Of a DNA stretch of 64,000 nt, positions 8,680 to 63,906 are shown in pieces. How positions within the stretch are numbered: the first letter of the stretch is position 1; each line of letters begins with the position of its first letter. Where the stretch lies: the NCBI GenBank assembly GCA_963749445.1, contig CAVVMJ010000010.1:43913-107912 (forward strand), read 5' to 3'. The notes under the pieces were generated by a model, which was given only the letters and a program-made list of their open reading frames with translations, searched no databases and was not told the origin of the DNA. The translations under genes were made by a program, and so were the position numbers. Origin of the DNA: an uncultured bacterium. Lineage in GTDB: Bacteria; Patescibacteriota; Doudnabacteria; UBA920.

Positions 8680-8721
8680 TAATGATTGACTTTTTGACGG
8701 CCGTCAAAAAGTCAATCATTA
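8680..8721. repeat. perfect 21-bp-arm palindrome between the sortase gene and the downstream gene
   Basis: TAATGATTGACTTTTTGACGG|CCGTCAAAAAGTCAATCATTA with no loop. Confidence 0.7.
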
Positions 8722-14605: not shown

Positions 14606-14648
14606 AAAAGCCTGTCTAATATCAATTCTGGCCAGAATTGATATTAGA

Positions 14649-15182
14649 CTAGATAAAATTAAACTTTTTCCTTAAATCTTTATCACTGTCCATTTCTTCA
14701 ACTTTCAAAATTCGGATAAAAAGCAGCAGGCCTGTTTCTCTCAAATACATAATCGCCTCTCGGTTTAAAGGATACGGGCTGACATAAACGCTGTGCTGCA
14801 ATTTCTTAAAACCGTTTTTCTTGAGAAGGCTTCGAAAAAAATTGCGTTTATCTTCACTTTCTTCGGGAATATCAAACATTATTATTCGCCATTTGCCATC
14901 CCATTTTTTTGGCCGTTCCGGTAATCGAGCTTTTGACAACAATGCTTCAAGCTCGCCTTTTGCTGTCAGTCTTATAAAACGTTCATTATCTTTATTTACA
15001 TATTTAATCCAGCCTTTCGCCGCCAAATAACTGACAATTTTATAAAAATTTTTGTTGTCACCCAGCGGCTGCCCCTTATATAACCGCTTGCGCATTTCGT
15101 GGGGAGTAACCAAAAATGTATCCCCCGCAACCAGCAGGGACATCAATATTTTGCTAGTTAAAGTAAAATCTTTTTTTGCCAT
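14649..15182 (-). CDS. PaaX-like transcriptional regulator (winged HTH plus Cas2-like domain)
   Basis: N-terminal winged-HTH (FIRLTAKGELEAL). C-terminal WRIIMFDIPE...LQHSVYVS matches the Cas2/PaaX-middle-domain fold signature. Confidence 0.5.
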   Translation of the reverse strand: MAKKDFTLTSKILMSLLVAGDTFLVTPHEMRKRLYKGQPLGDNKNFYKIVSYLAAKGWIKYVNKDNERFIRLTAKGELEALLSKARLPERPKKWDGKWRIIMFDIPEESEDKRNFFRSLLKKNGFKKLQHSVYVSPYPLNREAIMYLRETGLLLFIRILKVEEMDSDKDLRKKFNFI

Positions 15183-17828: not shown

Positions 17829-18629
17829 CTAGGTTAAAATCTTCCACGGGGTGGCTAAAGCAACAATAGTAATCGCCAACGCGACCAAAACTAAGTGAAA
17901 TTGGATTTTTTTGACGGTTAAAGTCTGGAACAAATGGTAGTAGTTTAAAATCAGGCAAAAATAAAACAGGCAAAGCAGTATCAGTCCCTGGGCCGAATAA
18001 TGAAGCGGCAAAAAACTTTCCGCCCAAAACAGCTCGGCGGAAAACAGGCTCAATGCCAGGGCCGCCACCCACTTGGTCTTATCCGGCTGGGGGACAAATT
18101 CGTAAAACGCGCGGCTAAGAAGCAAGGTCACAAAAAATACGCCGAGCAAATAGAGCGGCTGCAGGGAAAACTGCCAGTTGAGCAAATGCCAGCGGCCCAG
18201 ATGCACGGCAATTTGGTGAAAATCCGGAAAAAATTGTCCGGCGGCCGAAAGGCCCAGCAGCAAACCGAAAGCAATCAGCAGCGTTTCATTAATCACCATA
18301 TTTTCCGTGAAATTGCCCAAATTGACTTCCGCCAAAAAAATCACCACAGCCGCGCTGGCCAAAAACCAACCGCGGAACACGGGCGTGGGCAGCATAAAAA
18401 AAATCGCGAAGCCGCTGAAAAACTGCAGCACTGACCGCGTTAAAATCCAGGGGTTGTATTTTTGGACGGACAATAAATATTTTTTGTTATAGTAAGCCAC
18501 CGCGCCGCAAAACAACAAAAAAACCGGCAGCATGATGCGGAACACAGGCTGCGGATTTGACAAGCGCCAAAGGACTGCGGCATACAGCACCCCAATGACG
18601 GCGGAAATTATTTTATGTTTTTGGAACAT
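17829..18629 (-). CDS. polytopic membrane protein (hypothetical)
   Basis: 266-aa ORF with 7-8 predicted TM segments. Confidence 0.4.
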   Translation of the reverse strand: MFQKHKIISAVIGVLYAAVLWRLSNPQPVFRIMLPVFLLFCGAVAYYNKKYLLSVQKYNPWILTRSVLQFFSGFAIFFMLPTPVFRGWFLASAAVVIFLAEVNLGNFTENMVINETLLIAFGLLLGLSAAGQFFPDFHQIAVHLGRWHLLNWQFSLQPLYLLGVFFVTLLLSRAFYEFVPQPDKTKWVAALALSLFSAELFWAESFLPLHYSAQGLILLCLFYFCLILNYYHLFQTLTVKKIQFHLVLVALAITIVALATPWKILT

Positions 18630-19482
18630 TGCGGTAAAGATATATCAAAACGCAAAAACTTATTGCGGCCAGGAGCAAACTGACCAGAGCGTTAAGTCGG
18701 AAAGCCCCAATAAAAGTACTGTCAATTCTTAAAAACTCCAAACAAAATCTCAGTAAATTATACAATAAAAAATAAGAAAAAGCAACGAGCCCCGCTTTTT
18801 GTTTCTTGCCGATTTTGAGCAAAAAAATCAGGATAAAAGTATTGCCCACGACTTCATACAAAAACCAAGGGTGAAAAAAATTATAATTGACAAAAATTTC
18901 CGGACGGAATTGCAATGGCACAAACATTTTCCAGGGCAGGTTCGTTGGATAACCGAATGCTTCGTAATTAAACAGGTTGCCAAAACGGCCGATAATTTGG
19001 CCTAGCAAAACACACGGCGCGAGCCAGTCTAAAAGAGGGCTAAGGGCTAAGGGTTTAGGGCTAAGTCTCCGATAAATTTCTAATATCAAAATGCCGCCGA
19101 GGACAGCGCCGTAAATGGACAAGCCGCCGTTCCAGACTTTAAAAATATCGATCGGATATAGCCGGTAATACCCAATGGACGAAAGCACGTGATATAATCT
19201 GGCCCCGATGAAACCGCCAATAATCACCCAAAATAAAATATCCTCGGCTTGCTTTGGGGTTATCCCAAAAGTCGATGATCTTTTCATCGCGAGATAAAAG
19301 CCGGCCGCCGCCGCAGCTGCCATTATAAGCCCGTAATAATGAATGGTAACCAACCCGATACGGAAGTATTGGGGAAGAATTATACGACCAGAAAAGACGC
19401 GTTGCAAAAAGAAAACCAAGGCTATCAAACTCGCGCCAACTAGCCTAATAATGACCTTCCTCGATTTTGAGGCAAGAAGCAT
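18613..19482 (-). CDS. lgt: prolipoprotein diacylglyceryl transferase
   Basis: Lgt signature IGRFGNLFNYEAFG and multi-TM topology. Carries an in-frame short repeat insertion encoding LSPKPLALSP. Confidence 0.8.
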   Translation of the reverse strand: MLLASKSRKVIIRLVGASLIALVFFLQRVFSGRIILPQYFRIGLVTIHYYGLIMAAAAAAGFYLAMKRSSTFGITPKQAEDILFWVIIGGFIGARLYHVLSSIGYYRLYPIDIFKVWNGGLSIYGAVLGGILILEIYRRLSPKPLALSPLLDWLAPCVLLGQIIGRFGNLFNYEAFGYPTNLPWKMFVPLQFRPEIFVNYNFFHPWFLYEVVGNTFILIFLLKIGKKQKAGLVAFSYFLLYNLLRFCLEFLRIDSTFIGAFRLNALVSLLLAAISFCVLIYLYRNVPKT

Positions 19483-20110: not shown

Positions 20111-20951
20111 TTTGGTTTTATTGATCAGTTATATATAAGCAATGTAGCGTGCCGATTCATCGGCGTCCGAAAACCGCCCATAAATGGGCACGCTACACTT
20201 ATTCATTATATAAAACATTTGTCAAAAAGACAAAAAAAGCTCTCTGCCAGATCAGAGAGCAACGGTACCCGGAAGCCCGCGTGCGGCCCCGGGATTTTTC
20301 TACGATACGCAACCGTTCAAAAACAAACGGCTGGTTCCCGCGGCAGATGCTGGCAACCGCGAAAAATTCATAATTGCGGCCCGGAGCTTTCGCCCCGGAC
20401 TGTGCCCCATGTGGGGCTCCTTCTCCTTGGTATTGTATACCCGCTTGCCAGTTCAGGCGGGGTGATGCAAAAGGGCAGAAGCCCCAACTACGCCCAAAAT
20501 ATCACCGATATTACTGGTTGGGCCTGCCTGATCAAACGCTCCCGGAGCTAAATGGAGTTAAAAAATATCAGGGCAGAAGCGCCTGCAGTCCTCGGCCGTC
20601 AACCGAGTCCTTTGGCGATTTTTTGCCCCTATTTCGTCCAAACCATCAGGGGCCAATGGATTGCACGTTGGGCTATCGGCTCAGCAGGTTGACGGACATC
20701 GTCGCACTCATAGACGAAACTCCCTTCTTCATGTGTTCCAATTGTTTTTCCGCAGGCCTTTTTCCTGCGGCGATTGGTTTAACCAGATATTACTCTCTCT
20801 CTCTGTTTTTGTCAACATTTTTGCCATTTTTACAATTTTGTTGTAAAATACTTTTATCATTGATTTTTAACAGCCCTACCGACTGTTTATCGGACGAGGG
20901 CTATCCTCAGAGGCCGATAAATCGGCAAACTACACTGGGGTGAAAGCAAAT

Positions 20952-22815
20952 ATGCAACGAACACTATCTTTGGAAACGCCCGAAAAAATCGGGCAAGACG
21001 TCTCGGTTGAGGGCTGGGTAAATTCCCGGCGCGACCACGGGGGCGTTATTTTTATTGATTTGCGCGACCACACTGGTTTGGTCCAGCTCGCGATTCATCC
21101 TGATGAAAAAGAGGCTTTCGCGGCCGCTGATAAATGCCGCGACGAGTTTGTAATAAAAGCCGAGGGCAAAGTTATTGAACGGTCGCCCGAAACCAAAAAC
21201 GAAAACCTGCCCACAGGCGGCGTGGAAATTTTAACTTCATCTATCGTCATCCTTAATACTTCCAAACCCCTGCCGTTTCAGGTGGCGCACGGCCATGGTG
21301 AAGAACAGGAAATTAACGAGGATTTGCGATTAAAATATCGGTTCCTTGATCTGCGCCGCGAAAAAATGCAAGCAATGCTCGTCAAACGGCACAAAATGAT
21401 TAAGTTTATCCGCGACTGGATGGACGAACATCAATTTATAGAAATCACCACGCCGATTCTGACTTCCAGCAGCCCCGAAGGCGCGCGCGACTTTTTAGTG
21501 CCGTCGCGCCTGCACCCCGGAAAATTTTACGCTCTGCCGCAATCGCCTCAGCAATACAAACAGCTGCTGATGACCGGCGGCGTGCCGCGCTATTTCCAAA
21601 TCGCGCCATGTATGCGAGACGAAGACCCGCGTGCGGACAGAAGCCCGGGCGAACACTACCAGCTGGACTTGGAAATCGGTTTTGCCCAGGAACCGGAAGA
21701 TGTGTTTTCGGTGATGGAGCCGTTTTTTGTGGAGTTGGCCGAAAAATTCGCGGACAAAAAAATCTGGAAAAAACCTTTCCCGCGCATTTCCTACGAAGAC
21801 GCCATGAATTTATACGGCTCGGATAAACCGGATTTGCGTTTTGGAATGGCAATGGTGGATTTAACGGAAGATTTACGCAATACAAAATTTAGCGTTTTCG
21901 GCAACGCCATAAAAAACGGCGGGGTGGTCAAGGCCATTTGTTGCGACGACGGCGCAAAATTAACCCGCTCGCAAATTGACGAACTTACGGAAATGGTCAA
22001 AAAAGAAGGCGCCGGCGGGCTGGCGTATATTGTTGTTGATAGCAAATCCGATAGTGGCGTAGAGGCACGCCGCGGCGTGCCTGATCAAGACGGCATGCCT
22101 CGGCATGCCGCTACAGGGACAGAAAACCTCCGCTCCCCCATCCTTAAATTTTTATCATCTGACGAAATTTCCGCCATCCTCACCAAAACCAAGGCCGAGC
22201 CCGGTGACATTATTTTCTTTGGCGCGGACCAGTTGCCGATTGTGAACAAAGTCCTCGGGAAGCTCCGCAGTAAACTTGGCGACGTCTTCGGGTTAAAAGA
22301 TCGAAAACCTAATAGCCTGGGCCTGGATTTACAACTTCCCGATGTATGAATACAATGAGCAGGAAAAGCGCCTGGACTTCGGCCACAATCCGTTTTCCAT
22401 GCCCAAAGGCGGGCTGGAAGCATTAAACACGCAAGATCCGCTCAAAATCATTGCCCAGCAATATGACATTGTGGCCAACGGCCTGGAAATTTGCTCCGGC
22501 GCCATCCGCAATTACCATCCCGAAACTATGTATAAGGCTTTTGAAATTGTTGGTTACGACAAAAAAACTGTGGACGAAAAATTCGGCGGCATGATCCGCG
22601 CCTTTGAATTTGGCGCGCCGCCGCACGGCGGCATGGCCCCGGGCATTGATAGGATAATGATGCTTTTGGAAAATGAACCCAACATCCGCGAAATTATCGC
22701 CTTCCCCAAAAACGGCTCAGCCGAAGACGTCATGATGGGCGCCCCCGGCACCGTGGAAGAAAAACAGTTAAAAGAATTGCATATAAAACTGGACCTTCCA
22801 AAACCTAAAAAATAG
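20952..22815 (+). CDS. aspS: aspartyl-tRNA synthetase, with an apparent frameshift in an A4 run near 22295-22298
   Basis: N-terminal anticodon-binding OB fold, class II motifs and motif 3 [19 protein letters not shown]. ORFs 20940..22349 and 22342..22815 are in different frames. The upstream frame reads ...GLKD and the downstream frame ...[16 protein letters not shown], matching the E. coli sequence around WAPLWVIDFPMFE. Confidence 0.85.
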
Positions 22816-22875
22816 CAGTCCATCCCGGAATTTTTTGCGCTGATGGCTATCACAGGCCGCAAAAAATATCCGGGA
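22816..22875 (+). repeat. hairpin repeat family F2, copy 1
   Basis: CATCCCGGAATTTTTTGCG - 20-nt loop - CGCAAAAAATATCCGGGATCC. Near-identical copies at 43998-44057 and, inverted, at 55140-55213. Confidence 0.8.
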
Positions 22876-22971
22876 TCCAGAATCGAGCAAAAATCTGGAT
22901 TCCCGCTTCCGTGGGAATGGCAAAGAGTAATTCACCGATTTATCGGTCATAAAAAATTAAATGCAAAAAAA

Positions 22972-23871: not shown

Positions 23872-24000
23872 TTACGGCCTTCTCCCCTTTTGAGGGGAGA
23901 TGTCGCGAATGCAGCTGAGCGACAGAGAGGTTGCAATCGCACAAGGATACAACCTCTCCCCTGCCCCTCTCCTCAAAAGGAGAGGGGGCTCCGCGAAATC
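23872..24000. repeat. variant copy of palindromic repeat family F1 in the ybaK-scpA intergenic region
   Basis: CTCCCCTTTTGAGGGGAG hairpin plus ACAACCTCTCCCCTGCCCCTCTCCTCAAAAGGAGAGGGGGCTCCGCG. Shares modules with the copy at 62129-62175. Confidence 0.7.
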
Positions 24001-24003
24001 ACC

Positions 24004-24735
24004 ATGCTCCAAACCAAACTCCGACAATTTGAAGGGCCGCTGGATCTGCTGCTGTCCCTGATTGAACAGCGGCAGCTGAACATTACCGAAATCGCGCTGG
24101 CCGAGGTGACCGAACAATTTTTGCAGCACATTAAACAGCTGGAAAAAATTGACCCGACCGTGCTGGCCGATTATCTGGCCATTGCCGCCAAGCTTTTGGT
24201 CATTAAATCCAAGGCCATTTTGCCGACTTTGGAAATTGAGGAAGAGGAAGAGGACGCCGGCTTTGATTTGGAAAGCCGATTGCTGCTTTACAAACAGTTT
24301 AAAGAAGCCGCCAAGTACTTAAAGCATCTGGATAACAAACGAAAACAAAGCTTCACCCGCTCTTTACAATTTGAACAGCGGATGAATTTTTATCCCGACC
24401 CCAATGTCAGCCCGGAGACTTTGCATAACTCCATCCTCAGGGTGCTGAACGCCTTAAAAGAACTGGATGCCCTGCCCAAAGCCCAAATCAAAGAAGCCAT
24501 TTCCATCCAGGAAAAAATTAACCAGTTGCGCAATTTCCTGGAATCGCAGGTGGAAACCAAATTAAGCGATCTGTTAAAATCCGCCAAAAACAAGTCGGAA
24601 GTGATAATTACTTTTTTGGCGCTGCTGGAACTCATTAAGCAAAAAATCCTCACCGTCAACCAGGAAGCGATGTTCGCAGATATTGCCATAAAAAAATACC
24701 ATCCCGACACAAGCGGAATGCCATCGGAAAATTAA
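24004..24735 (+). CDS. scpA: segregation and condensation protein A
   Basis: MLQTKLRQFEGPLDLLLSLIEQRQLNITEIALAEVTEQFL, the ScpA N-terminal signature. Confidence 0.8.
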   Translation: MLQTKLRQFEGPLDLLLSLIEQRQLNITEIALAEVTEQFLQHIKQLEKIDPTVLADYLAIAAKLLVIKSKAILPTLEIEEEEEDAGFDLESRLLLYKQFKEAAKYLKHLDNKRKQSFTRSLQFEQRMNFYPDPNVSPETLHNSILRVLNALKELDALPKAQIKEAISIQEKINQLRNFLESQVETKLSDLLKSAKNKSEVIITFLALLELIKQKILTVNQEAMFADIAIKKYHPDTSGMPSEN

Positions 24736-25815: not shown

Positions 25816-26012
25816 ACGGCCGGAAACGCTTATCTAGGCAACTGGTTATAAGAAGCCTGCGGACTGGACGGCACTTCCTGTTTGAGCTGAACTTTTTGGC
25901 AAGCGGCCGCCAAAAGCGACAGTAAAACCAAAACCAAAATCAATTTCCTTTTACCCATATTATAAATCCCTTGTCTAACATCATTTCCGGCCGGAAATGA
26001 TGTTAGAGTAAA

Positions 26013-37056: not shown

Positions 37057-38421
37057 TCAGAATGACGCCCTTGATAAATAATCTCCGATAATTTGCCTGG
37101 TTTCGTCCAGGTTTTTTGTTTGCATTAGCTTGGCGCGTAGCTCGTGCGCGCCGGCAAAACCGGAACAATAAGCTTTAAAATGCTTGCGCATAATCGCGAA
37201 TGATTTATTTTTGCCAAGTTCCCGGTCAAACAGTTCCGCGTGTTCCAGCATGACGCGGAGGCGTTCTTTTATGTCCGTCTGGTAATTATCATCGCGAAAT
37301 ACCCAAGGGTGCCCAAACGCTCCCCTGCCGATCATTACGCCGTCGCAACCCGTCTCCGCGACGCGCGCCAGCCCTTCCTCGCGCGACTTAATGTCGCCAT
37401 TCCCGATAATCAAAGTCTTAGCCCTTAGCCCTAAAACCTTAGCCCTGATATTCACCGCCTCGGCAATCTTGTCCCAATGCGCCGGAACTTTGGACATTTC
37501 CTGTTTGGTACGGCCGTGCAAAATCAGCGCCGCGATGTCCATCGCGAGCAAATTTTCCACCCATTTTTCCATCTCCGATGTTTTGCTGTAGCCGATGCGG
37601 GTTTTGACTGATATCGGCACCAAAACCACCTCCCCCCTCGGCTTCGCTCGGGGTACTCCTCCTTGAAAAGGAGGAGAGCTCCGCACTTTATCCGATAACG
37701 GGGACAATTGCGGAGCCTCCCCTCCTGTTAAGGAGGGGTGTCCCGCGGAGCGGGACGGGGTGGTTGGAGATTGCACGGATTGTCCCGACAGCCACCCTTC
37801 TTTTGTCGCGCTGATGATTTCCCAGGCGAGTTTCGGTTCGCGGATAAGCGCCGCGCAAGTCCCGCCCGCAATTTCTTTTTGCTGCGGACAGCCCATATTA
37901 ATGTCAATGCCGTCAAATTTTAAATCGCGGATGATTCGCGCGGCCTCTTTAAATTTTTCCGGGTCGCGCCCCCACAACTGCGCCACAATCGGTCTCTGCG
38001 CTTCGCTGTATTTTAAATCGATGGATAAATTTTTCCTGCCTTCCGGATGCGTCAACCCGTCCACGTTTATAAATTCCGTGAACGTAACAAAATTATTACC
38101 ACCTCCCCCGCCTTCGGCGGGTACTCCTCCTATGAGAGGAGGAGAGCTCCGCAAAATATTCGAGGATAACCGCGGAGCGCTCCCCTCCTTTTTTGAGGCC
38201 TTGATGAAGGCAAAGGAGGGGTGGCTCGCGCAGCGAGACGGGGTGGTACTTCCACTTTTAACTTTTAATTTTCCACTTTTAACTTGCCCGCCATAGCGGG
38301 CCACCATCTCCCGAAACGCAAAGTCAGTGACTTGCTCCATCGGAGCCAAGCAAAATATCGGTTTCTTTAAATTATTCCAAAAATTATTCATTGCGCAAGC
38401 AAACGACCTCTCTGTCGCCAA
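37057..38421 (-). CDS. tRNA-dihydrouridine synthase (Dus family; specific paralog not determined) carrying three in-frame repeat-element insertions
   Basis: CLAPMEQVTDFAFREMV, DINMGCPQQKEIAGGTCAAL and IGNGDI motifs. At 454 aa versus about 330 expected. Inserts correspond to family F1 copies at 38098-38240 and 37625-37766 and a short TTAGCCCT repeat at 37416-37451. Confidence 0.8.
   Translation of the reverse strand: MATERSFACAMNNFWNNLKKPIFCLAPMEQVTDFAFREMVARYGGQVKSGKLKVKSGSTTPSRCASHPSFAFIKASKKEGSAPRLSSNILRSSPPLIGGVPAEGGGGGNNFVTFTEFINVDGLTHPEGRKNLSIDLKYSEAQRPIVAQLWGRDPEKFKEAARIIRDLKFDGIDINMGCPQQKEIAGGTCAALIREPKLAWEIISATKEGWLSGQSVQSPTTPSRSAGHPSLTGGEAPQLSPLSDKVRSSPPFQGGVPRAKPRGEVVLVPISVKTRIGYSKTSEMEKWVENLLAMDIAALILHGRTKQEMSKVPAHWDKIAEAVNIRAKVLGLRAKTLIIGNGDIKSREEGLARVAETGCDGVMIGRGAFGHPWVFRDDNYQTDIKERLRVMLEHAELFDRELGKNKSFAIMRKHFKAYCSGFAGAHELRAKLMQTKNLDETRQIIGDYLSRASF
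37625..37766. repeat. palindromic repeat family F1, copy A (module order 1 then 2), inside dus
   Basis: CCACCTCCCCCC..GGGGTACTCCTCCttgaaaaGGAGGAGAGCTCCGC ... GCGGAGCCTCCCCTCCtgttaaGGAGGGGTG..GGGACGGGGTGG. Confidence 0.85.
38098..38285. repeat. palindromic repeat family F1, copy B, plus adjacent tandem TTCCACTTTTAACTT x2, inside dus
   Basis: Same module structure. Module 2 is nearly identical to the copies at 62499 and 63405. Confidence 0.85.
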
Positions 38422-39757: not shown

Positions 39758-39900
39758 AATTTATTAGTAGTTAGCAGATAGTATTTAGCAGTTAGGGCTA
39801 GATCGACCTCGTAGCCGATAAATATCCTTTTAATAAAAAGACTCGGGCTTACCCGAGTGAATAAGTGTAGTGTGCACATTTATGGGCAACTAATGATGGC
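39758..39900 (-). promoter_or_regulatory. rplJ 5' leader (candidate L10-leader autoregulatory structure)
   Basis: A 140-nt untranslated region with hairpin potential (GGGCTTACCCGAG..) upstream of rplJ. Call is by position only. Confidence 0.3.
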
Positions 39901-39911
39901 CGATAAATCGG

Positions 39912-40040
39912 CGCACTACATTTTCCTCGGTGGGTTTACCCGCCTAAATTTTGCGCTTGTCTTTAGGGTTTGATAAATAACGAAATAATTTTGTTATCGA
40001 TCAAATTTCCAACTAATTGGGCAAAATTTTGGCGGGTGAA
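39912..40040. repeat. MITE-like repeat family F4, second element
   Basis: TTTACCCGCCTAAATTTTGCGC ... AATTGGGCAAAATTTTGGCGGGTGAA flanking an 85-nt core. Confidence 0.7.
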
Positions 40041-40253: not shown

Positions 40254-40892
40254 CTAATGCCCCAGTGCAAACTTGGGCAAATAATCAATCAATGCCGCGG
40301 CTTCGCGCAGGTAATGGAAAACCAAATCAGCCGACGAATACCCGCCGGACGTCTCCGGCGCTTTCCAATAAACCGGGCTAAACCCGGCCAGTTTGGCGGT
40401 AATCACGCCGCGCGCCAAATGGTAGGTATCGCTGACAATAATAACGCTTTTGGCCGACGGAATTAATTTTTTGGAATCGGCGATGTTTTCAAAAGTTGAT
40501 TGGGAATTTTGTTCCAAAATCATCACCGGCGCTTTATTCTCCCTCCCCTTTTGAGGGGAGGGATTAAGGGAGAGGTTGCTGTCTGATTCTTTCGCCACCT
40601 CATCCAGCACCGCGTTCTCCATATACTGCGCTTCGGAAATAGATTTAGGATAATCCTCCCCGCCGGACAAAACCAGTACGGGCGCCTTGCCTTCATCGTA
40701 CAGTTTTAACCCCTCAAGCGCGCGGTTATAAGCCGCTGGCGTCTTAATGGCCGCGCCAAGCACTATAATAGCGTCCGCCTGCCCCACCGGCCGCTGCCAG
40801 TGCCCCACGCCAATCACAACGCCAAGCGATATAACAAACACCGCGCACGTGGCGTAAATTAAATATCTGATGGTTTTCCAAAGTTTCCTCAT
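40254..40892 (-). CDS. DUF218 (YdcF/ElyC/SanA-like) membrane-anchored protein with an in-frame mini-repeat insertion
   Basis: N-terminal TM; LVLSGGEDYPKSISEA and TFENIADSK motifs. Insert at 40548-40585 encodes NPSPQKGREN. Confidence 0.55.
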   Translation of the reverse strand: MRKLWKTIRYLIYATCAVFVISLGVVIGVGHWQRPVGQADAIIVLGAAIKTPAAYNRALEGLKLYDEGKAPVLVLSGGEDYPKSISEAQYMENAVLDEVAKESDSNLSLNPSPQKGRENKAPVMILEQNSQSTFENIADSKKLIPSAKSVIIVSDTYHLARGVITAKLAGFSPVYWKAPETSGGYSSADLVFHYLREAAALIDYLPKFALGH

Positions 40893-42432: not shown

Positions 42433-42537
42433 CCTGTCATTGCGAGGAGGCCGGGGCTTCGACCGGCCGACGCGGCAATCTCCTTCAACAATCGATAAAG
42501 ATTGCTTCGGTCGGATGCTACTGCCTCGCAATGACAG
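42433..42537 (+). other. compound hairpin element in an ORF-free gap
   Basis: Outer stem CTGTCATTGCGAGG / CCTCGCAATGACAG encloses two inner hairpins (GCCGGggcttcgaCCGGC; GCAATCT...AGATTGC). Confidence 0.6.
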
Positions 42538-43997: not shown

Positions 43998-44057
43998 ATC
44001 CCAGAATTTTTTTGTGCTGATGGTATTCATCGGCCACAAAAAAATATCCGGGATCCA
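43998..44057 (+). repeat. hairpin repeat family F2, copy 2
   Basis: CATCCCAGAATTTTTTTGTG ... CACAAAAAAATATCCGGGATCC. Confidence 0.8.
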
Positions 44058-44198
44058 AAAAGAAGCGCAACTGGATCCCGGCTCTCGGCGGCACTCGGCC
44101 GGGATGGCACAAGAAATACAAAACTTACCATCAATCATTGCCAACTTTTTTATTTTGCCCTATAATTTACGAAGAAATATCATTAATTAAAAGCAAAC

Positions 44199-48171: not shown

Positions 48172-48732
48172 TCAAAGCCCATTTTTTGCTTCTAAAACGT
48201 TTAACTGTAATGATTTTTTTATCTCTTCCAGCGCTATTTGTTTGTTTTCTAAACTTTTAACCTCTGTCACTTTGTTTTTCTGTCGGCCCACTTCGCGGTA
48301 AAAGGCCGTGCATTTTTCCAAAAAGCCCGGCGGCAAATTATCAGCGTCAAGATATTTACCGGCAAGTTCGTCGTCCAGAGGCACAACAATAATTTTATCA
48401 TCCACTTCGCCGCGGTCAATGGTTTTTAACATACCGACCGCTTTGCACTTCACGAACTCGCCCATCTTAATCGGCGCGGATGACAAAACTATGGCGTCCA
48501 AAGGGTCACCGTCGCCGCCCAAAGTGTGCGGAATGAATCCGTAATTAAAAGGAAAAACCAAATCCTTAAATACAAAATCCAATTTTAAACTGTCTGAGGC
48601 TTCGTCGTACTCGTACTTTAAATTACTCCCTTGCGGAATTTCCACAATGACGTTAAAAGCCTCCAAACTGCCAAAAGGAATTTGTTCCAGATTAATTTTG
48701 TCATTTTTATTATTTTTACTCATTTTTGTCAT
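48172..48732 (-). CDS. ppa: soluble inorganic pyrophosphatase (family I)
   Basis: Core region FNVIVEIPQGSNLKYEYD...LDFVFKDLVFPFNYGFIPHTLGGDGDPLDAIVL. Confidence 0.85.
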   Translation of the reverse strand: MTKMSKNNKNDKINLEQIPFGSLEAFNVIVEIPQGSNLKYEYDEASDSLKLDFVFKDLVFPFNYGFIPHTLGGDGDPLDAIVLSSAPIKMGEFVKCKAVGMLKTIDRGEVDDKIIVVPLDDELAGKYLDADNLPPGFLEKCTAFYREVGRQKNKVTEVKSLENKQIALEEIKKSLQLNVLEAKNGL

Positions 48733-50138
48733 TACCCAATTATTCCGCCGCCAACGCACACTTTACCCTTATATAATACCAAACTCTGCCCCGAAGCGAC
48801 AGCTTTTTGGGGATCTTTAAAGGTTACGCGATAAAGGCCATTTTTAATTTTGTCGATAGTTAGCGGCACCAGTTGGCCCTGGTGGCGGTAGCGGCCAACT
48901 AGGGCTAAGGGTCTAGGGCTAAGAGCTAAGTCGCTTTTGCTTAGCCCTATAACCTTAGCGCTTAGCCCTGTTTGCCCAATCCAGTTCACGCTATAAATTT
49001 GTACTTCTTTCGTCATCAGATTTTCGTCATCCGGATTATTTGTAACGTACAACGCATTGCTCTTTAAATCTTTTCTTACCACATAATACGGCCCGCCGGC
49101 GCCAACATGAATTCCCTGCCGCTGGCCGATGGTATAGTTAAATAATCCCTGATGTTGGCCGATTATGTTTCCTGAAATTGCAAGTGCAGCCGACTTGTCC
49201 GCCGAAGCTTCAGCGAAGGTGGAAGCAATCCCGTCTTTTATGGGATTGCCACGTCGCCCCTCCGGTGCAGTCGGGGCTCCTCGCAATTTCAAATCAGAAG
49301 AAACAAGAACAATCGGACCCGGTTTTGGCTTTAACCTCTGTTCCAAAAAATCTTTTAATCTTATCTTGCCGACAAAGCACAGTCCCATACTCTCTTTTTT
49401 CTCGGCGTTGGGCAGATCGATTTTCCGCGCCAGCGCGCGCACCGCCGATTTTTTCATCCCGCCGATGGGAAACAACAAATGCGGCAGCTGGTGGGTTTTG
49501 ATGTTATAGATAAAGTAGGTCTGGTCTTTAAATTCGTCGATACTGCGCATAAGACCATACCTAACTCCAACCTCCTCCCCCGCCTGACGGCGGGTACTCC
49601 TCCTTAAAAAGGAGGAGAGCTCCGCGGAGCCGCCAAGAACATCTGCAGAGCCTCCCCTCCTGCCAAGGAGGGGCGTCTGCGAAGCAGACGGGGTGGTATG
49701 AATCTGCGCGTAATGGCCGGTGGCCAAATAATCAAATCCGTTTTGCATTGCCCAGTTATACAAAAGTTTGAACTTGATTTCCTTATTGCACATCACGTCC
49801 GGGTTGGGGGTGAGGCCTTTTTTGTATTGGTCAAAAAAATAACGCATCACGTTTTTTTGGTACTGTTTTTCAAAATCCAAAGTATGCAGCGGAATTCGCA
49901 AAAACGCGGCCACGCGCAGCGCGTCCTGGCGATCTATTAGCCACGGACATTCGTTTTTTAAAAGCCCGGCCGTGGAAGACCAATTCTTCATAAACGCGGC
50001 CTCAACTTCGTAGCCCTGCTTAATCAGCAAATACGCCGAAACCGCGGAATCAATCCCGCCTGACAGGGCGATTAAAACTTTTCGTTTCTTAACTCCCCCT
50101 CTTTTGAAAAGAGAGGGCTGGGGGAAGTTCTTTTTCAT
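48732..50138 (-). CDS. mnmA: tRNA-specific 2-thiouridylase MnmA carrying in-frame repeat-element insertions
   Basis: PP-loop LIALSGGIDSAV; KDQTYF; C-terminal domains. The F1 copy at 49566-49700 encodes a 46-aa insert. A TTAGCCCT repeat at 48901-48972 encodes ALSPRPLAL. A mini-hairpin sits at 50091-50130 near the N-terminus. Confidence 0.85.
   Translation of the reverse strand: MKKNFPQPSLFKRGGVKKRKVLIALSGGIDSAVSAYLLIKQGYEVEAAFMKNWSSTAGLLKNECPWLIDRQDALRVAAFLRIPLHTLDFEKQYQKNVMRYFFDQYKKGLTPNPDVMCNKEIKFKLLYNWAMQNGFDYLATGHYAQIHTTPSASQTPLLGRRGGSADVLGGSAELSSFLRRSTRRQAGEEVGVRYGLMRSIDEFKDQTYFIYNIKTHQLPHLLFPIGGMKKSAVRALARKIDLPNAEKKESMGLCFVGKIRLKDFLEQRLKPKPGPIVLVSSDLKLRGAPTAPEGRRGNPIKDGIASTFAEASADKSAALAISGNIIGQHQGLFNYTIGQRQGIHVGAGGPYYVVRKDLKSNALYVTNNPDDENLMTKEVQIYSVNWIGQTGLSAKVIGLSKSDLALSPRPLALVGRYRHQGQLVPLTIDKIKNGLYRVTFKDPQKAVASGQSLVLYKGKVCVGGGIIG
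49566..49700. repeat. palindromic repeat family F1, copy C, inside mnmA
   Basis: CCTCCTCCCCCGCC..GGGTACTCCTCCttaaaaaGGAGGAGAGCTCCGCGGAGC ... CTCCCCTCCtgccaaGGAGGGG..GACGGGGTGG. Confidence 0.85.
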
Positions 50139-50268
50139 CCCGCTGATTATAGCAAAATTAAACAGAAAAATCTATGTCTTATATAACGTGCGGCCGCACG
50201 TTATATAAGACTAATAAAAAAACCCACTGCCACACGGCGACGTATGGCAGTAGGAAAACCCAAGCTTT

Positions 50269-52784: not shown

Positions 52785-52851
52785 TATTTTGTATTAAGAA
52801 GTACGGCAACTTTCTCCCTTAACTCTTAACTCCTAATTCTTAACTCTTGTC

Positions 52852-53154
52852 TTACTCTTTCATCATATTGCCGAACTTGCTTTGCAGCATTTTTTTATGA
52901 TGCTTAAACAAATCCTCCAGGGCCGAGCGAATGTGCCGCGCGATTTCGCTTTTGTCGCCGGCAATGTCCGGGCTGACTTCCACGCTTTTAACGTTTTGGT
53001 TGCCGTCAATGATTAAAACGATTTTGCCGCCGGACGATTTGCCGCTCACGGTTTCCACTGCCAACAGGCTTTCCATCTGCTTGGCCTGCTTGCGCATTTC
53101 GTTAATATCCTTTAACTTGTCAAAAATTCCCATAAAATAATTTTTTAATGACAA
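52852..53154 (-). CDS. ybaB: nucleoid-associated protein YbaB/EbfC
   Basis: 100 aa; central SSGGKIVLIIDGNQNVKSVEVSP pattern. Confidence 0.8.
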   Translation of the reverse strand: MSLKNYFMGIFDKLKDINEMRKQAKQMESLLAVETVSGKSSGGKIVLIIDGNQNVKSVEVSPDIAGDKSEIARHIRSALEDLFKHHKKMLQSKFGNMMKE

Positions 53155-55078: not shown

Positions 55079-55139
55079 ACTTTTATTATAGCTTGTCCAC
55101 CCCGGAACCCCGGACTCCGATCCGGGGTATCCGGGGTCC

Positions 55140-55213
55140 AGGTAAAAGCCTATATCTGGATCCCGGATATTTTTTGCGGCTTATAATAATCGTCAACGCA
55201 AAAAATTCCGGGA
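55140..55213 (-). repeat. hairpin repeat family F2, copy 3 (inverted orientation)
   Basis: Reverse complement reads CCATCCCGGAATTTTTTGCG ttgacgattattataagc CGCAAAAAATATCCGGGATCC. Confidence 0.8.
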
Positions 55214-55221
55214 TGGAACCT

Positions 55222-56398: not shown

Positions 56399-57691
56399 TC
56401 AACTTGATTTTAAATATAAAATCAAGTTTTCTTTATTTACTATTGATTCTACCGACGTTGCCAAGCTTTTGACTTTAAACTTTTCACTTTTAACTTCCTC
56501 TTCGCCGACCACCAGCACGTACGGGATTTTTTCCCTGTCCGCGGTTTTGACCTGGGCGGAAACTTTTTTATCGGTAAGGTCAACGGCCACATTCACCCCT
56601 TGCTTTCTAATGTAGTCTGCCAATTTATTGGCCTCTTCGATATATCCTTCAAGATGACAAATGTACAGTTTTACCGGCGGATGATATTCGGGCAACAAAT
56701 CATAAGTCTCCAAAAAATCCCGCGTGGTCACGTCGCCCCAACCAAAGCCGATGCCCGAAACTTTTTCCACGCCAAAAATCCCGACCAAATCATCGTACCT
56801 CCCGCCGCCGAACAACGCGCGGGGGTTTTTGGGATTGGTATCGTACATTTCAAACACCGTGCCGGTGTAATAGTCAAAGCCGCGGGTTAAAGGAAAGTGA
56901 AATTTGATATTTTTTATTCCCTTATCATTTAATATTTTAAATATTCCGATGAACGATTTTACTTCGGGATTATGTCCAAACTCTTTTACCATGTATTCCA
57001 TTGTCAAAGTTTGTATCAGCTTATCAAATTCAAACGCTTTCTCTCTTGACCCAACTATTTCCGACAGGGCATCAACAAACTTATTAGGATCCAATTTATC
57101 TGATTTATCCAACAATTTCATAAACTTATGTTCTTGTACTTCTGACCATTTGTGTAATTTTGCAAACTCTTTTAAAATTTTGCGGCTGTTTATTCTTATC
57201 TCAAAATTTTCATCCTTTGCCCCAAACGCCTTCATAATATCATAGGCGAGCGATATTATTTCCACATCAGCCTCAATTGAATCCACGCCGAACAAATCGC
57301 AGTTCAGCTGCCAGTGTTCGCGCAAACGGCCGCGCTGGGGGCGTTCGTAACGAAATAAGTTCGGGATAGAATACCAGCGCAAAGGAAAAGTTAATTCTTT
57401 GCGCTTTTGCGCCACCATACGAGCCACGGTTGGCGTCATCTCGGGACGAATGGTTACATCGCGACCGCCGCGATCAGTAAAAGAGTAAGTTTGCTCGTTG
57501 ACGATTTCCTCGCCGGTTTTAGCACGGTACAAATCCGTCTCTTCCAAAATAGACGCGCCGTATTCCAAATAACCGTAGCTTTCCGCCACTTTTTTCCATA
57601 TTGAAAAAATGTAATTTTGCACGAACTGGTCCTGCGGATAAAAATCCCTCGTGCCTTTGTAGGGCTCCAAACTTAACTTTTTTTGTGTCAT
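56399..57691 (-). CDS. hisS: histidyl-tRNA synthetase
   Basis: Class II motifs, RYERPQRGRLREHWQ and anticodon-binding C-terminus. Confidence 0.9.
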   Translation of the reverse strand: MTQKKLSLEPYKGTRDFYPQDQFVQNYIFSIWKKVAESYGYLEYGASILEETDLYRAKTGEEIVNEQTYSFTDRGGRDVTIRPEMTPTVARMVAQKRKELTFPLRWYSIPNLFRYERPQRGRLREHWQLNCDLFGVDSIEADVEIISLAYDIMKAFGAKDENFEIRINSRKILKEFAKLHKWSEVQEHKFMKLLDKSDKLDPNKFVDALSEIVGSREKAFEFDKLIQTLTMEYMVKEFGHNPEVKSFIGIFKILNDKGIKNIKFHFPLTRGFDYYTGTVFEMYDTNPKNPRALFGGGRYDDLVGIFGVEKVSGIGFGWGDVTTRDFLETYDLLPEYHPPVKLYICHLEGYIEEANKLADYIRKQGVNVAVDLTDKKVSAQVKTADREKIPYVLVVGEEEVKSEKFKVKSLATSVESIVNKENLILYLKSS

Positions 57692-57772
57692 AATGAAAAA
57701 TCCTTACTTAAAATATAGCAAAGATAAGGATTTTTTACAATGATTGATGTCACGACGTTGTTGCTTAGGAAA

Positions 57773-57930
57773 ACTGCGGAGCATTCCCCTCCTATTCCCA
57801 GAATATCATCAGAATATAGGAGGGGTGTCGCCCGCAGGGTGACAGGGTGGTAAATACAGGTTGCCGATGTCTACCACCTCCCCCTGCTAGTGCAGGGTAC
57901 TCCTCCTGTTCCAGGAGGAGAGGCTCCGCA
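57773..57930. repeat. palindromic repeat family F1, copy D (module order 2 then 1), intergenic
   Basis: GCGGAGCATTCCCCTCC..GGAGGGGTG..GGGTGGTA - spacer - TACCACCTCCCCC..GGGTACTCCTCCtgttccaGGAGGAGAGGCTCCGC. Confidence 0.85.
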
Positions 57931-57956
57931 TATACCCCTATACTGAACAATTTCAG

Positions 57957-58997: not shown

Positions 58998-59090
58998 ATA
59001 ACGGCGTTTGAATTAACTATTTCCGTCCGAACATCGTTCCATAACCCGCTCCAAAAAATCACAATTGGTACCAATTGTGATTTTTTGTAA

Positions 59091-61543: not shown

Positions 61544-62491
61544 ATGAGCTTATTAATCGTCGGTAGCGTGGCGTTTGACAGCATTGAGACGCCGTTTGGG
61601 AAAATTAAAAAAGCTTTGGGCGGCAGCGCCAGCTATTTTTCTTTGGCTGCTTCGTTTTTTGCGCGGCCGAGCGTAGTCGGCGTGGTCGGAAAGGATTTTG
61701 CCGATATTTATCGGCAACCGCTAAAAAAGAAAAACATTGACCTCTCGGGCCTGGAGCAAACAGCGGGAAAGACTTTTGCCTGGGGCGGCAAGTACAGTTT
61801 TGATTTGAACAACCGCGAAACCCTGTTTACCCATTTAAACGTTTTTGAAAATTTCAAGCCAAAACTTTCGGCCGGCCACAAAAACGCATCTTATATTTTT
61901 TTGGGCAACATCCACCCGGCGCTGCAGCTTGAAGTTTTATCGCAAATAAAAAAACCAAAACTCGTAGGGCTGGACACGATGAATTTATGGATAGAAAAAA
62001 CGCCCAAGGAACTGGCTAAAATTTTAAAACTGGTTGATGTTTTTGTGATTAACGATTCCGAGGCGCGGGAACTGTCGGGGGAACATAATTTGGTGAAAGC
62101 CGCAAAGAAAATCATCGCGATGATGGACACAACCTCTCCCCAGCCCTCCCCTCAAAAGGGGAGGGAGACTGCAACGCTGATTATCAAGCGCGGGGAATAT
62201 GGGCTGCTGCTGTTTAAAGGCCGCGATGTGTTCCATCTGCCGGGATATCCCTTAGAAGACGTGATTGACCCCACCGGCGCGGGCGACAGCTTTGCCGGAG
62301 GGCTGATGGGCTTTTTAGCCAAAACTGAAGACCTAAGTTGGGGCAATTTAAAACGAGCCTGCGTGGCAGGCTCGGTCATGGCCAGTTTTTGCTGCGAGCG
62401 GCTGGGTACCCAAAGGTTGCAGGAAATATCGCCGGGTGATATAAAACGGCGGTTCAAAGAATTTAAACGGTTGACGCACTTTGATAACTAG
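61544..62491 (+). CDS. PfkB-family carbohydrate kinase with in-frame mini-repeat insertion
   Basis: DPTGAGDSFAGGLMGFL ATP-binding motif; N-terminal GG sugar-binding region. Insert 62129-62175 encodes TTSPQPSPQKGRETA. Confidence 0.75.
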   Translation: MSLLIVGSVAFDSIETPFGKIKKALGGSASYFSLAASFFARPSVVGVVGKDFADIYRQPLKKKNIDLSGLEQTAGKTFAWGGKYSFDLNNRETLFTHLNVFENFKPKLSAGHKNASYIFLGNIHPALQLEVLSQIKKPKLVGLDTMNLWIEKTPKELAKILKLVDVFVINDSEARELSGEHNLVKAAKKIIAMMDTTSPQPSPQKGRETATLIIKRGEYGLLLFKGRDVFHLPGYPLEDVIDPTGAGDSFAGGLMGFLAKTEDLSWGNLKRACVAGSVMASFCCERLGTQRLQEISPGDIKRRFKEFKRLTHFDN

Positions 62492-62498
62492 CAAACCC

Positions 62499-62647
62499 GC
62501 GGAGCACTCCCCTCCTTTTTTGAGGTCTTGATGAGCACAAAGGAGGGGTGGCTCGCGCAGCGAGACGGGGTGGTATTTATCGTTGATTCTACCACCTCCC
62601 CCCGCTTCGCGGGGTACTCCTCCTTTTCAGGAGGAGAGGCTCCGCAA
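62499..62647. repeat. palindromic repeat family F1, copy E (module order 2 then 1)
   Basis: Module 2 is identical over about 78 nt to copy F (63405-63480). Confidence 0.85.
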
Positions 62648-62993
62648 TTATTCTATGACAAAGGGCGGCCAATGGCCGCCCTATACGTCACCGGCTATTA
62701 GTTTCTCCGTTCAGCCAGCTATCCATCGTGGTGGGGTTAAAATTATAGGTTCGGCCGCCAAGGTGGCCGGACACGGGTACGCGGAACAGCCAGAGTACAA
62801 AGGCGGCTAAAATCAGCAGCATCAAAATTACGCTGATAATGGGGACTGGTGCATATATCTGTTGGTGGATAAATCAAAATCGCCTGTAGCTACAGGCGAT
62901 TTTGTGTATTTTTTCGTTACTAATTTCGTTTATGAAATCAGTTTTGCTTTTATGCTAATCAGTTAATCATCAAGCGCCGGTAAACATTAACGT

Positions 62994-63362: not shown

Positions 63363-63404
63363 AAGATTATAAATAGTTTTTATACTACGGTTTTAAGGAA
63401 TATC

Positions 63405-63558
63405 GCGGAGCACTCCCCTCCTTTTTTGAGGTCTTGATGAGCACAAAGGAGGGGTGGCTCGCGCAGCGAGACGGGGTGGTATTATCATAGCGAGTATTTA
63501 TACCACCTCCCCCCGACAAGTCGGGGTACTCCTCCTATGATAGGAGGAGAGGCTCCGC
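63405..63558. repeat. palindromic repeat family F1, copy F (module order 2 then 1)
   Basis: CGCGGAGCACTCCCCTCCttttttgagg..GGAGGGGTGGCTCGCGCAGCGAGACGGGGTGGTA - spacer - TACCACCTCCCCCCGAC..GGGGTACTCCTCCtatgataGGAGGAGAGGCTCCGCGG. Confidence 0.85.
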
Positions 63559-63561
63559 GGA

Positions 63562-63906
63562 CTACCTATGGCTCCCGCCGCGCGACAAAATCGCGATTCC
63601 CAAAACGATTATCAGCACCGGCCAGAGCACGTTCCAGCCAATCCAGGGCTGCGGGAACAACTGGTTCATTAAAGCCACGGCGCCGACAATTACAACAATC
63701 AACCCAAACCACAAACGGCGGTTTTGGCGCCTTTTTTCCCAATCGATATTTTTAACTTCACCCCTCACTTCGCCGGCCCAGTGTTGGGCGCTGGCTCTTA
63801 CGTCGGCCACGAAATCGTGAAATTGCTCGCCGTGGTTAACGACTCCGGCGCCTGGCCTGCCAAAGGCTCTTTGGGAATAATGATCGCCAAAATAATATAC
63901 AGCCAC
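63562..63906 (-). CDS. small membrane protein (paralog of 62994..63362)
   Basis: Shared WPVLIIVLGIAILSR motif and two TM segments. Confidence 0.4.
   Translation of the reverse strand: MAVYYFGDHYSQRAFGRPGAGVVNHGEQFHDFVADVRASAQHWAGEVRGEVKNIDWEKRRQNRRLWFGLIVVIVGAVALMNQLFPQPWIGWNVLWPVLIIVLGIAILSRGGSHR

Follow-up and report, generated by a model that had tools for sequence, protein, structure and literature searches.

The gene mnmA, which encodes a tRNA-modification enzyme, occupies positions 48732-50138 (minus strand) of a 64,000-nucleotide stretch of DNA, here called the window, from an uncultured bacterium of the Doudnabacteria (Patescibacteriota; contig CAVVMJ010000010.1). Our analyses revealed that its reading frame contains four palindromic inserts, and that this one enzyme, MnmA, owes about 23% of its length to four repeat families. 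The best explanation is that the inserts represent several families of short palindromic repeat DNA populating this Doudnabacteria-type lineage. We consider it probable, at about 0.66, that they are repeats akin to REP sequences (repetitive palindromes outside genes) and their hairpin-forming doublets (REPINs), or to the Rickettsia palindromic elements (RPEs), which are tolerated in loops of the protein and translated through. One of them, a copy of the element that we designate F1, could be followed far beyond the window.

Four palindromic inserts in an intact mnmA

The mnmA gene is a single, intact open frame of 468 codons. Its product matches the Pfam domain tRNA_Me_trans HUP (E 4.7e-68), in a match split into two stretches, as well as the PRC-barrel and C-terminal barrel domains. 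The PP-loop SGGIDS is intact at residues 26-31, and C117, in NPDVMCNKE, and C254, in GLCFVG, align to the catalytic cysteines of the E. coli enzyme, both motifs being preserved. The protein thus shows every feature by which we judged membership of MnmA, namely a PP-loop of the form SGGxDS, the two catalytic cysteines and the HUP, PRC-barrel and C-terminal barrel domains. Alignment to E. coli MnmA (2DER) gives three blocks, leaving residues 146-191 and 283-319 of the query unaligned and gaps at about 392-410. The protein is about 108 residues longer than its shortest orthologue (359 residues) and about a quarter above the normal length. The intact catalytic motifs and the predicted fold suggest that it remains functional. 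Upstream of the PP-loop, the ATG at 50138 is the sole ATG, GTG or TTG in frame. Because no other canonical start precedes the PP-loop, we place the start of mnmA there, an assignment that also draws on the terminator-like hairpin of the upstream gene at 50223-50254, and take the N-terminal insert to be coding.

This N-terminal insert is a mini-hairpin at 50091-50130 (minus strand), with a 10-bp stem at 50095-50117, that is read as codons 5-16 (FPQPSLFKRGGV). It is found in some MnmA orthologues and absent from others, and its folding energy is unremarkable (z = -0.8). It is one of four copies of a motif of about 40 nt; the other three in the window all lie inside open reading frames (ORFs), each in sense orientation: 23946-23990 (+), within the ORF 23890-24735 (+), 40541-40585 (-) and 62125-62165 (+). 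The F1 copy, at 49563-49700 (minus strand), supplies 46 codons (residues 147-192) at a beta-hairpin tip that follows ATGHYA and corresponds to the interval between E. coli residues 143 and 149; it folds at -82 kcal/mol (z = -4.2) and is scored by nhmmer at E = 1.5e-36. The third insert, a palindrome designated F2 at 49174-49290 (minus strand; 117 nt, 39 codons), is bounded by the terminal repeats GAAATTGCGAGG / CACTTGCAATTTC, lies in a beta-hairpin after GPIV and folds at -59.8 kcal/mol (z = -4.9). Related terminal repeats bound an intergenic F2-type palindrome at 42437-42532 (no strand assigned; GTCATTGCGAGG ... CCTCGCAATGAC). F2 was not analysable as a family because its strict terminal-repeat pattern gave just two further copies in the 578 kb of sequence analysed. 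The last insert, at 48901-48969 (minus strand; 69 nt, 23 codons), sits in a loop of the C-terminal barrel after VNWI and consists of inverted arrays of the 8-mer AGGGCTAA, which form a hairpin (TTAGCCCT repeat; -38 kcal/mol, z = -3.2). One-armed arrays of the same 8-mer occur at 19036-19067 (no strand assigned), inside the ORF 18613-19482 (-), and at 37417-37446, inside dus. On the larger scale, the window holds 73 hairpins with a stem of at least 9 bp, against 10-16 in shuffled sequences, and 34 of the 73 lie inside ORFs. A 10-mer common to hairpin 4 of F1 and the PP-loop coding sequence was attributed to chance (about 0.4 expected).

An earlier note on this DNA, made from the letters alone, had described three inserts in mnmA and missed the F2 palindrome. 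It had taken the gene for a single open frame, on which the 468-residue ORF, the Pfam domains, the catalytic residues and the model fold all agree; the possibility it named, that mnmA is really two ORFs once sequencing errors are corrected, did not materialize, as F1 is in frame at the same site in other assemblies. The F1 copy is present as the 46-residue in-frame insert that it described, starting at 49563 and not, 3 nt off, at 49566. The tandem repeat that it saw near the C-terminus is likewise present and in frame, but it is a hairpin of two inverted 8-mer sets and not a plain tandem; Tandem Repeats Finder gave no array at a score of at least 30 for 48901-48972. The mini-hairpin next to the start codon was correctly recognized, whereas its tentative assignment to a 5' leader fails with the start codon established above.

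The places of insertion were compared among the 120 best homologues of MnmA, which share 57-100% identity with the query where they align to it and are 359-492 residues long; the named ones are Doudnabacteria or Patescibacteria, with one exception labelled Legionella sp. The alignment varies in length at four places, and the window protein is long at all four. The N-terminal leader ranges from 0 to 82 residues. The segment after ATGHYA measures 10-54 residues among the orthologues and 50 in the window protein; that after GPIV has 4 residues in 62 of the 120 and 11-54 in the other 58, with 46 in the window; and that after VNWI has 10-45, with 26 in the window. At one and the same place, different orthologues carry distinct peptides that are recognisably derived from palindromes, several of them unrelated to one another after GPIV, and the GLSAK...LALSP peptide of the 8-mer hairpin is found after ATGHYA in some orthologues and after VNWI in others. 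In six orthologues (P0006, P0023, P0029, P0037, P0052 and P0109), the KKVLIALS motif that precedes the PP-loop is doubled and flanks the N-terminal insert (e.g. ...KVLIALSAPRQARGAQRKKVLVALSGG); a long target duplication might explain the doubling, as might the copying of host sequence into a hairpin arm.

An AlphaFold model built on the 120-sequence alignment, which replaced a model from 27 sequences that was too poor (predicted local distance difference test, pLDDT, of 54), has a pLDDT of 73.7 and a predicted template-modelling score of 0.73, with a confident core. Its best Foldseek matches are 2hma and 2der, with a target-normalised template-modelling score of 0.8. The low-confidence segments of at least three residues (1-13, 160-173, 184-186, 255-259, 285-319 and 391-409) all fall in one of the four inserts, except 255-259, which adjoins the catalytic C254. 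Paired strands at 145-150/192-197, 274-278/324-329 and 375-386/414-417 flank three of the four inserts, which are thus predicted to lie at beta-hairpin tips. The low pLDDT and the length-variable sites of the 120 orthologues indicate, for MnmA only, that insertion into surface loops is compatible with the fold.

The F1 element, its hosts and signs of its turnover

The F1 core pattern matches six times in the window and never in 100 shuffles, and nhmmer recovers all six copies. Each of the six holds two related half-units on one strand, so that F1 amounts to a two-hairpin unit of about 65 nt doubled in inverted orientation. Within a half-unit, GCGGAGC is followed by an invariant polypyrimidine/polypurine hairpin, a variable G+C hairpin and GGGGTGGT. 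In genic copies the halves are arranged head-to-head (ACCACC...GCTCCGC, spacer, GCGGAGC...GGTGGT); in intergenic copies they are permuted to a tail-to-tail arrangement, often beside the 3' end of a gene. Terminal inverted repeats are present (CTCCAACCACCCC / GGGGAGGTGGTTGGAG) and are extended to CTCCAACCACC...GGTGGTTGGAG in about half of the copies. CGTC precedes hairpin 1 in 27 of 29 copies, and GTAC precedes hairpin 4. The sequence modules are invariant across all genomes sampled. A search of Rfam assigned F1 to no family, the only hits being tRNAs at the gathering threshold and chance-level miRNA matches at E <= 1.

Covariation was assessed on 29 distinct full copies, with 500 shuffles and slid pairing partners as controls. 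In the stems, 95.1% of the cells are paired, against 86.6% in the shuffles, none of which reached the observed value; cells changed on both sides number 79, against 30.9; and the covariation score is 0.207, compared with at most 0.043 for slid partners. The double changes concentrate in the two variable hairpins, and the other stems barely vary.

Two of the window copies lie in dus, at 37621-37768 and 38091-38249 (both minus strand), and three are intergenic and permuted: one at 57758-57951 (-), arranged tail-to-tail, one between convergent genes at 62486-62668 (-), and one at 63393-63571 (-), just downstream of the ORF 63562-63906 (-). Beyond the window, the GTDB species set has the exact 27-base core in 22 stretches from only five metagenome-assembled genomes (MAGs), of which four bear the title Doudnabacteria and one the title Saccharibacteria; a further 49 contigs with it come from metagenomes of peat or fen. 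The resulting census, in which genes were called as ORFs, numbers 88 copies from 76 sequences. Of 30 head-to-head copies, 26 are within long ORFs, 24 in one orientation and two in the other, as against none of 11 permuted copies. The 55 genic copies, from 71 related loci, group into 22 clusters of host proteins. Pfam identities were obtained for 17 hosts, and these include Dus, DUF6580, a Mur ligase, an FAD oxidase, an M50 protease, TatD, GatB, PolA, RecG, a class I aminoacyl-tRNA synthetase (aaRS) of the Ile/Leu/Met/Val type, ArgRS, AlaRS, transketolase, the N-terminal domain of pyruvate phosphate dikinase, a pseudouridine synthase and the ATP synthase gamma subunit.

The same DNA is read differently in different hosts. 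Among the same-strand copies, 22 of 24 are entered as ACC ACC CCG (TTPS), and past the first hairpin the frame varies among copies, yielding peptides such as LLGRRGGSA, PSLTGGEAP and PPLLEKEGNAP. Since the frame in which one DNA element is read changes from host to host, conservation does not lie in the peptide. A phmmer search of the whole library with the 46-residue F1 peptide, which is short and of low complexity, gave nothing beyond two repeat proteins that are unrelated. The host frame is open in each of the 26 intragenic full copies, as it must be by definition, since a copy counts as intragenic when an ORF spans it; of the other five frames 29% are open, and of the frames of intergenic permuted copies 17%.

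These results bear out the claim of the earlier note that in-frame insertion is systematic, F1 being in frame twice in the dus of the window and in 22 host protein clusters. Two regularities that it proposed to look for emerge less cleanly. The expected excess of stop-free host frames finds support in the 29% of the other frames, but the value for the host frame itself is built into the definition. As for lengths in multiples of three, the distance from ACCACC to GGTGGT has its mode at 128 nt, which is no such multiple, and only with 5-nt CTCCA/TGGAG extensions does it reach 138 nt, or 46 codons.

Comparison of orthologous sites points to gain, loss and replacement. Of the two F1 copies in the window Dus, the L009 orthologue shares only the first, in a different frame. 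The copy at 38091-38249, which has a long-loop hairpin, occupies a site that is also filled in the L009 and L072 orthologues in another reading frame, and that at 37621-37768 is opposed by an empty site in L009. No target-site duplication was readable at this pair of filled and empty sites, whose flanks are too diverged. PolA contains F1 in L017, L045 and L046 and none in L018. At identical sites, F1 lies in opposite orientation in RecG (L064 versus L040), in a 306-residue protein (L005 versus L066) and in PolA (L017/L045 versus L046), which is consistent with inversion in place between the terminal repeats or with re-insertion. At a shared site in mnmA, F1 is present in six orthologues that differ by exchange of hairpin 1, hairpin 4 or the spacer. 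Directly upstream of an F1 copy, dus also contains an A-rich tandem repeat of 38 nt (38255-38296; AAAAGTGGAAAATTAAAAGTTAAAAGTGG, peptide GQVKSGKLKVKSGS) that is not in the L009 orthologue; A-rich repeats akin to it are found at 52823-52853 and 56466-56496.

A possible mobilising system and competing explanations

A motif search over the 578 kb revealed an ORF resembling the REP-associated tyrosine transposases (RAYTs) at L025:2389-2826 (+) (contig CAIWKW010000083.1), about 330 nt downstream of an F1-carrying TatD gene. It scores 33.5 bits against Pfam Y1_Tnp, above the cut-off of 23, and 75.5 bits (E = 3.9e-21) against NCBIfam REP_Tyr_transpos, below the cut-off of 80. Its flanks hold the GTAG-tagged hairpins TGTAGTTT-GCCGATTTATCGGC and GCCGATAAATCGGC. 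REP hairpins of this GTAG type (GTAG..GCC[GC]AT-loop-AT[CG]GGC) are found in the window at 20140-20200, as an inverted doublet, and at 20913-20926 and 39899-39912; the same family occurs in 12 related loci, often as inverted doublets, some of them inside ORFs of 545-613 residues. The RAYT-like gene and the GTAG doublets suggest that the lineage has a classical REP/RAYT system. Within the window, the ORFs of 90-330 residues include no candidate with an HUH-Y motif, and 20 small ORFs matched no transposase family of Pfam.

We infer that F1 is likely to be mobilised by a RAYT-like enzyme. The elements would spread, or be replaced, at the DNA level through single-stranded hairpins and a REP-associated tyrosine (HUH/Y1) transposase. 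The copies found in housekeeping genes have an open host frame and lie in loops that the fold tolerates, a pattern that selection against all other insertions may have produced. The surviving copies would be transcribed and translated as disordered loops rich in Pro, Gly, Ser and Arg, as the preservation of frame and stop codons suggests. In intergenic copies the sense strand of F1 follows the direction of the local genes by 16 to 3, and in the window it is on the G-rich strand. This bias fits a strand-specific mechanism acting on single strands and is equally what a transcription-linked constraint would give; for genic F1, the few copies of opposite orientation oppose both the local gene direction and the replication direction, from which its orientation is thus inseparable.

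Several points weigh against inserts of this selfish, passively translated kind. The F1 core is the best-conserved stretch of mnmA, and a decaying selfish insert should behave otherwise. Stop-codon avoidance does not explain why 22 of the 24 same-strand copies are entered in one frame. The RAYT-like gene is flanked by another hairpin family and not by F1, and its score lies just under the NCBIfam cut-off; no transposition event, target-site duplication or cognate transposase has been demonstrated for F1. The census was seeded with an exact 27-base core and is biased to well-preserved copies, and translation through the inserts is deduced from nucleotide sequence.

The conservation of F1 within mnmA was followed at the nucleotide level. 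Between the window and L001 or L004, an 82-nt F1 core is 94-96% identical, compared with 71-84% for the rest of the gene in 90-nt windows; third codon positions agree at 89% within the core and at 55-57% elsewhere. The tract of high identity stops at the F1 boundaries and includes a spacer found only in the window, L001 and L004 copies. Simple neutral decay does not explain this conservation, which fits either a nucleotide sequence under selection or a conversion that stays within the element. The genic copies might accordingly be kept by host-level selection for a function of the nucleic acid, with the peptide as a by-product; candidates would be an mRNA structure with sequestered AGGAGG / CCUCC hairpins that influences how fast the message is translated or how stable it is, or else a site in the DNA for some protein. 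We regard this as the main rival, possible but unlikely. Speaking for it, the core has changed more than tenfold more slowly than the synonymous sites of the same gene in a tract that stops at the element edges, the copy-specific spacer is conserved, the stem changes are compensatory, the orientation relative to transcription is biased (24 to 2 in full genic copies, 16 to 3 in intergenic ones) and the F1 modules are the same in all genomes sampled. Close orthologues, however, have empty sites with no sign of lost gene function, orthologous sites hold F1 either way round or hold unrelated palindromes, and no Rfam family matches; moreover, conversion or re-insertion from other copies could yield the conservation, and the census favours conserved copies. 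A more specific form of the idea, which we put forward tentatively and with similarly low confidence, is that F1 is a structured module under purifying selection in the coding sequences of a lineage with reduced genomes, a domesticated REPIN-like element acting on mRNA, by translation pacing or protection from RNase, or on single-stranded DNA. It is suggested because F1 is conserved above the catalytic core of its hosts, keeps one orientation relative to transcription and has its variable hairpins exchanged whole.

That the inserts are lineage-specific loops selected for what the peptide does, for example extra contacts with RNA or a partner, so that the likeness of the DNA is secondary, appears very unlikely. 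Stop-free inserts are retained across several orthologues, the hosts are enriched in nucleic-acid enzymes and the peptides are rich in Arg, Gly and Pro, as such a role would have it; yet the frames differ between hosts and even between orthologues, as in the window and L009 Dus, and the peptide is not conserved, the DNA is conserved at third codon positions, intergenic copies exist and the inserts are predicted with low confidence. Removal of the elements before the mature protein arises, by intron-like excision or translational bypass of the RNA or by an intein-like process, is harder still to credit. The single strand is very stable (-82 kcal/mol, z = -4.2) and its closing stem joins both ends, as excision might demand, but excision does not call for what is seen, a stop-free host frame in every one of the 26 full copies within genes against 29% open among the other frames, and 138 nt is far below the size of a group I or II intron or an intein. 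With F1 unmatched in Rfam, whether at the gathering threshold or at E <= 1, this length and the open host frame (26 of 26) led us to reject a self-splicing intron or intein. That the ORF is an artefact of repeat mis-assembly, or a pseudogene that merely looks intact, is the least credible of these explanations. The source is a MAG, and mis-assembly is common at repeats; against this, F1 sits in frame at the same site in L001, L002/L003 and L004, assembled with different programs from different samples, and in a spacer-less variant in the mnmA of L047 and L062. The catalytic motifs are intact, residue identity to the F1-bearing orthologues is 72-76% and synteny is conserved.

Other window features and relation to known repeat systems

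Some further features of the window were recorded in passing. Near-perfect intergenic palindromes of 15-19 bp with 4-nt loops (GGCC in four of five) lie at 8680-8721, 14614-14649, 25974-26007, 50176-50211 and 59050-59089, and those beginning at 14614, 25974 and 50176 have GTCTAA/TTAGAC-like ends in common; they are candidates for a further repeat family, for terminators or for operators. A dispersed inverted-repeat family, ATCCGGGATCCAG...CTGGATCCCGGAT, is represented at 22819-22881 / 55155-55217 (63 nt, 89% complementary) and also at 44046-44083 and 55128-55169. At 1747-6642 (-), a 1631-residue ORF contains five or more tandem repeats of 294 nt (98 residues) at 4491-5977, with 72-85% identity. 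A class II aaRS at 20940-22815 (+) is seemingly split into a 469-residue ORF (20940-22349) and an overlapping 157-residue ORF (22342-22815), the latter with the final third of the tRNA-synt_2 domain; a frameshift, a split gene or a sequencing error might account for this. The region 14649-15182 (-) encodes a small protein that has a PaaX central / Cas2-like domain, and no CRISPR array was seen in the window.

Genomes of the Candidate Phyla Radiation (CPR) are usually described as streamlined. In-frame palindromic repeats, which occur in Rickettsia and, in sporadic cases, in REP-rich Proteobacteria and Opitutus, are found here in that radiation. Such repeats account for some of the unusual protein lengths and 'lineage-specific insertions' of these genomes, and they bear on the annotation, alignment, phylogeny and structure prediction of CPR proteins. 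The sites of insertion also offer a natural map of the loops of essential enzymes that tolerate 20-50 extra residues. With its RAYT-like gene and classical GTAG REP doublets, this CPR lineage is suited to the study of REPIN-type systems, and the nucleotide-level conservation of genic F1 leads one to ask whether elements of this sort are selfish and nothing more.

RPEs are described as decaying, and REPINs and bacterial interspersed mosaic elements (BIMEs) are essentially extragenic. RPE-1 and its relatives were reportedly described by Ogata et al. in 2000, work that PMC10969869 and PMC3733652 summarize. Our literature search returned no description of elements like F1 in Doudnabacteria or Patescibacteria. 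RPEs are about 150 bp long, with many in-frame copies in unrelated metabolic genes at fold-compatible positions (PMC10969869). F1 shares with them its palindromic form, a length of about 100-150 bp and its many copies (six in 64 kb, 88 in 76 sequences), and it too lies in frame in unrelated conserved genes, 22 clusters of them, including tRNA-related and DNA-repair genes. As with RPEs, the extra peptide segments are compatible with the fold and several families inhabit one small genome. F1 differs in that its hosts belong to the Patescibacteria, within the CPR, whereas those of RPEs are Alphaproteobacteria; in pairing two-hairpin units, head-to-head in its genic form and tail-to-tail in a separate intergenic one; and in having a reading frame that varies between copies and, in mnmA, a copy better conserved than its host gene.

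The REPs tagged with GTAG or CGTC offer a second comparison. Intragenic tagged REPs and REP dimers are reported from genes for aaRS, PolA, Rec/Uvr proteins and pseudouridine synthase; they are a minority that encodes 20-80 residues, the extragenic ones lie 3' of genes, and most are head-to-head dimers (Di Nocera et al. 2013, PMC3733652). F1 resembles them in its small hairpins, head-to-head dimers, location 3' of genes when extragenic and shared kinds of intragenic host, but it has a second, invariant polypurine/polypyrimidine hairpin in each unit and most of its full copies are intragenic. Families 1-4 of the CGTC REPs are defined by a CGTC tag, a stem of 8-9 bp starting with A/T pairs, a loop of 4-5 nt and a CCA tail (PMC3733652). 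F1 has CGTC before hairpin 1 (27 of 29 copies) and a tail that is often CCA or ACA; with 3-6 covarying pairs, G+C-rich stems and loops of 3-8 nt, it falls outside that definition. The survey of tagged REPs covered eight phyla (PMC3733652), and Patescibacteria are not shown to be among them.

Like the REPIN-RAYT systems and the BIMEs of E. coli, F1 forms inverted doublets with compensatory stem changes and a strand-biased orientation. An F1-bearing MAG has a RAYT-like gene flanked by GTAG REPs, and GTAG doublets occur in the window; F1 itself, unlike GTAG REPs and REPINs, has CGTC and GTAC in place of the GTAG tag, and no RAYT flanked by F1 was found. [quoted passage not shown] F1 is similarly short and non-autonomous, with terminal inverted repeats, and extends or interrupts ORFs in frame. 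No target-site duplication or parent insertion sequence was found for F1, and its sites lie in the middle of enzymes, in tolerated loops of essential-type enzymes, whereas MITE fusions are mostly at ORF ends or in hypothetical genes. F1 is filed here as a new family, which works in the manner of RPEs and tagged REPs and is counted as a member of none of them.

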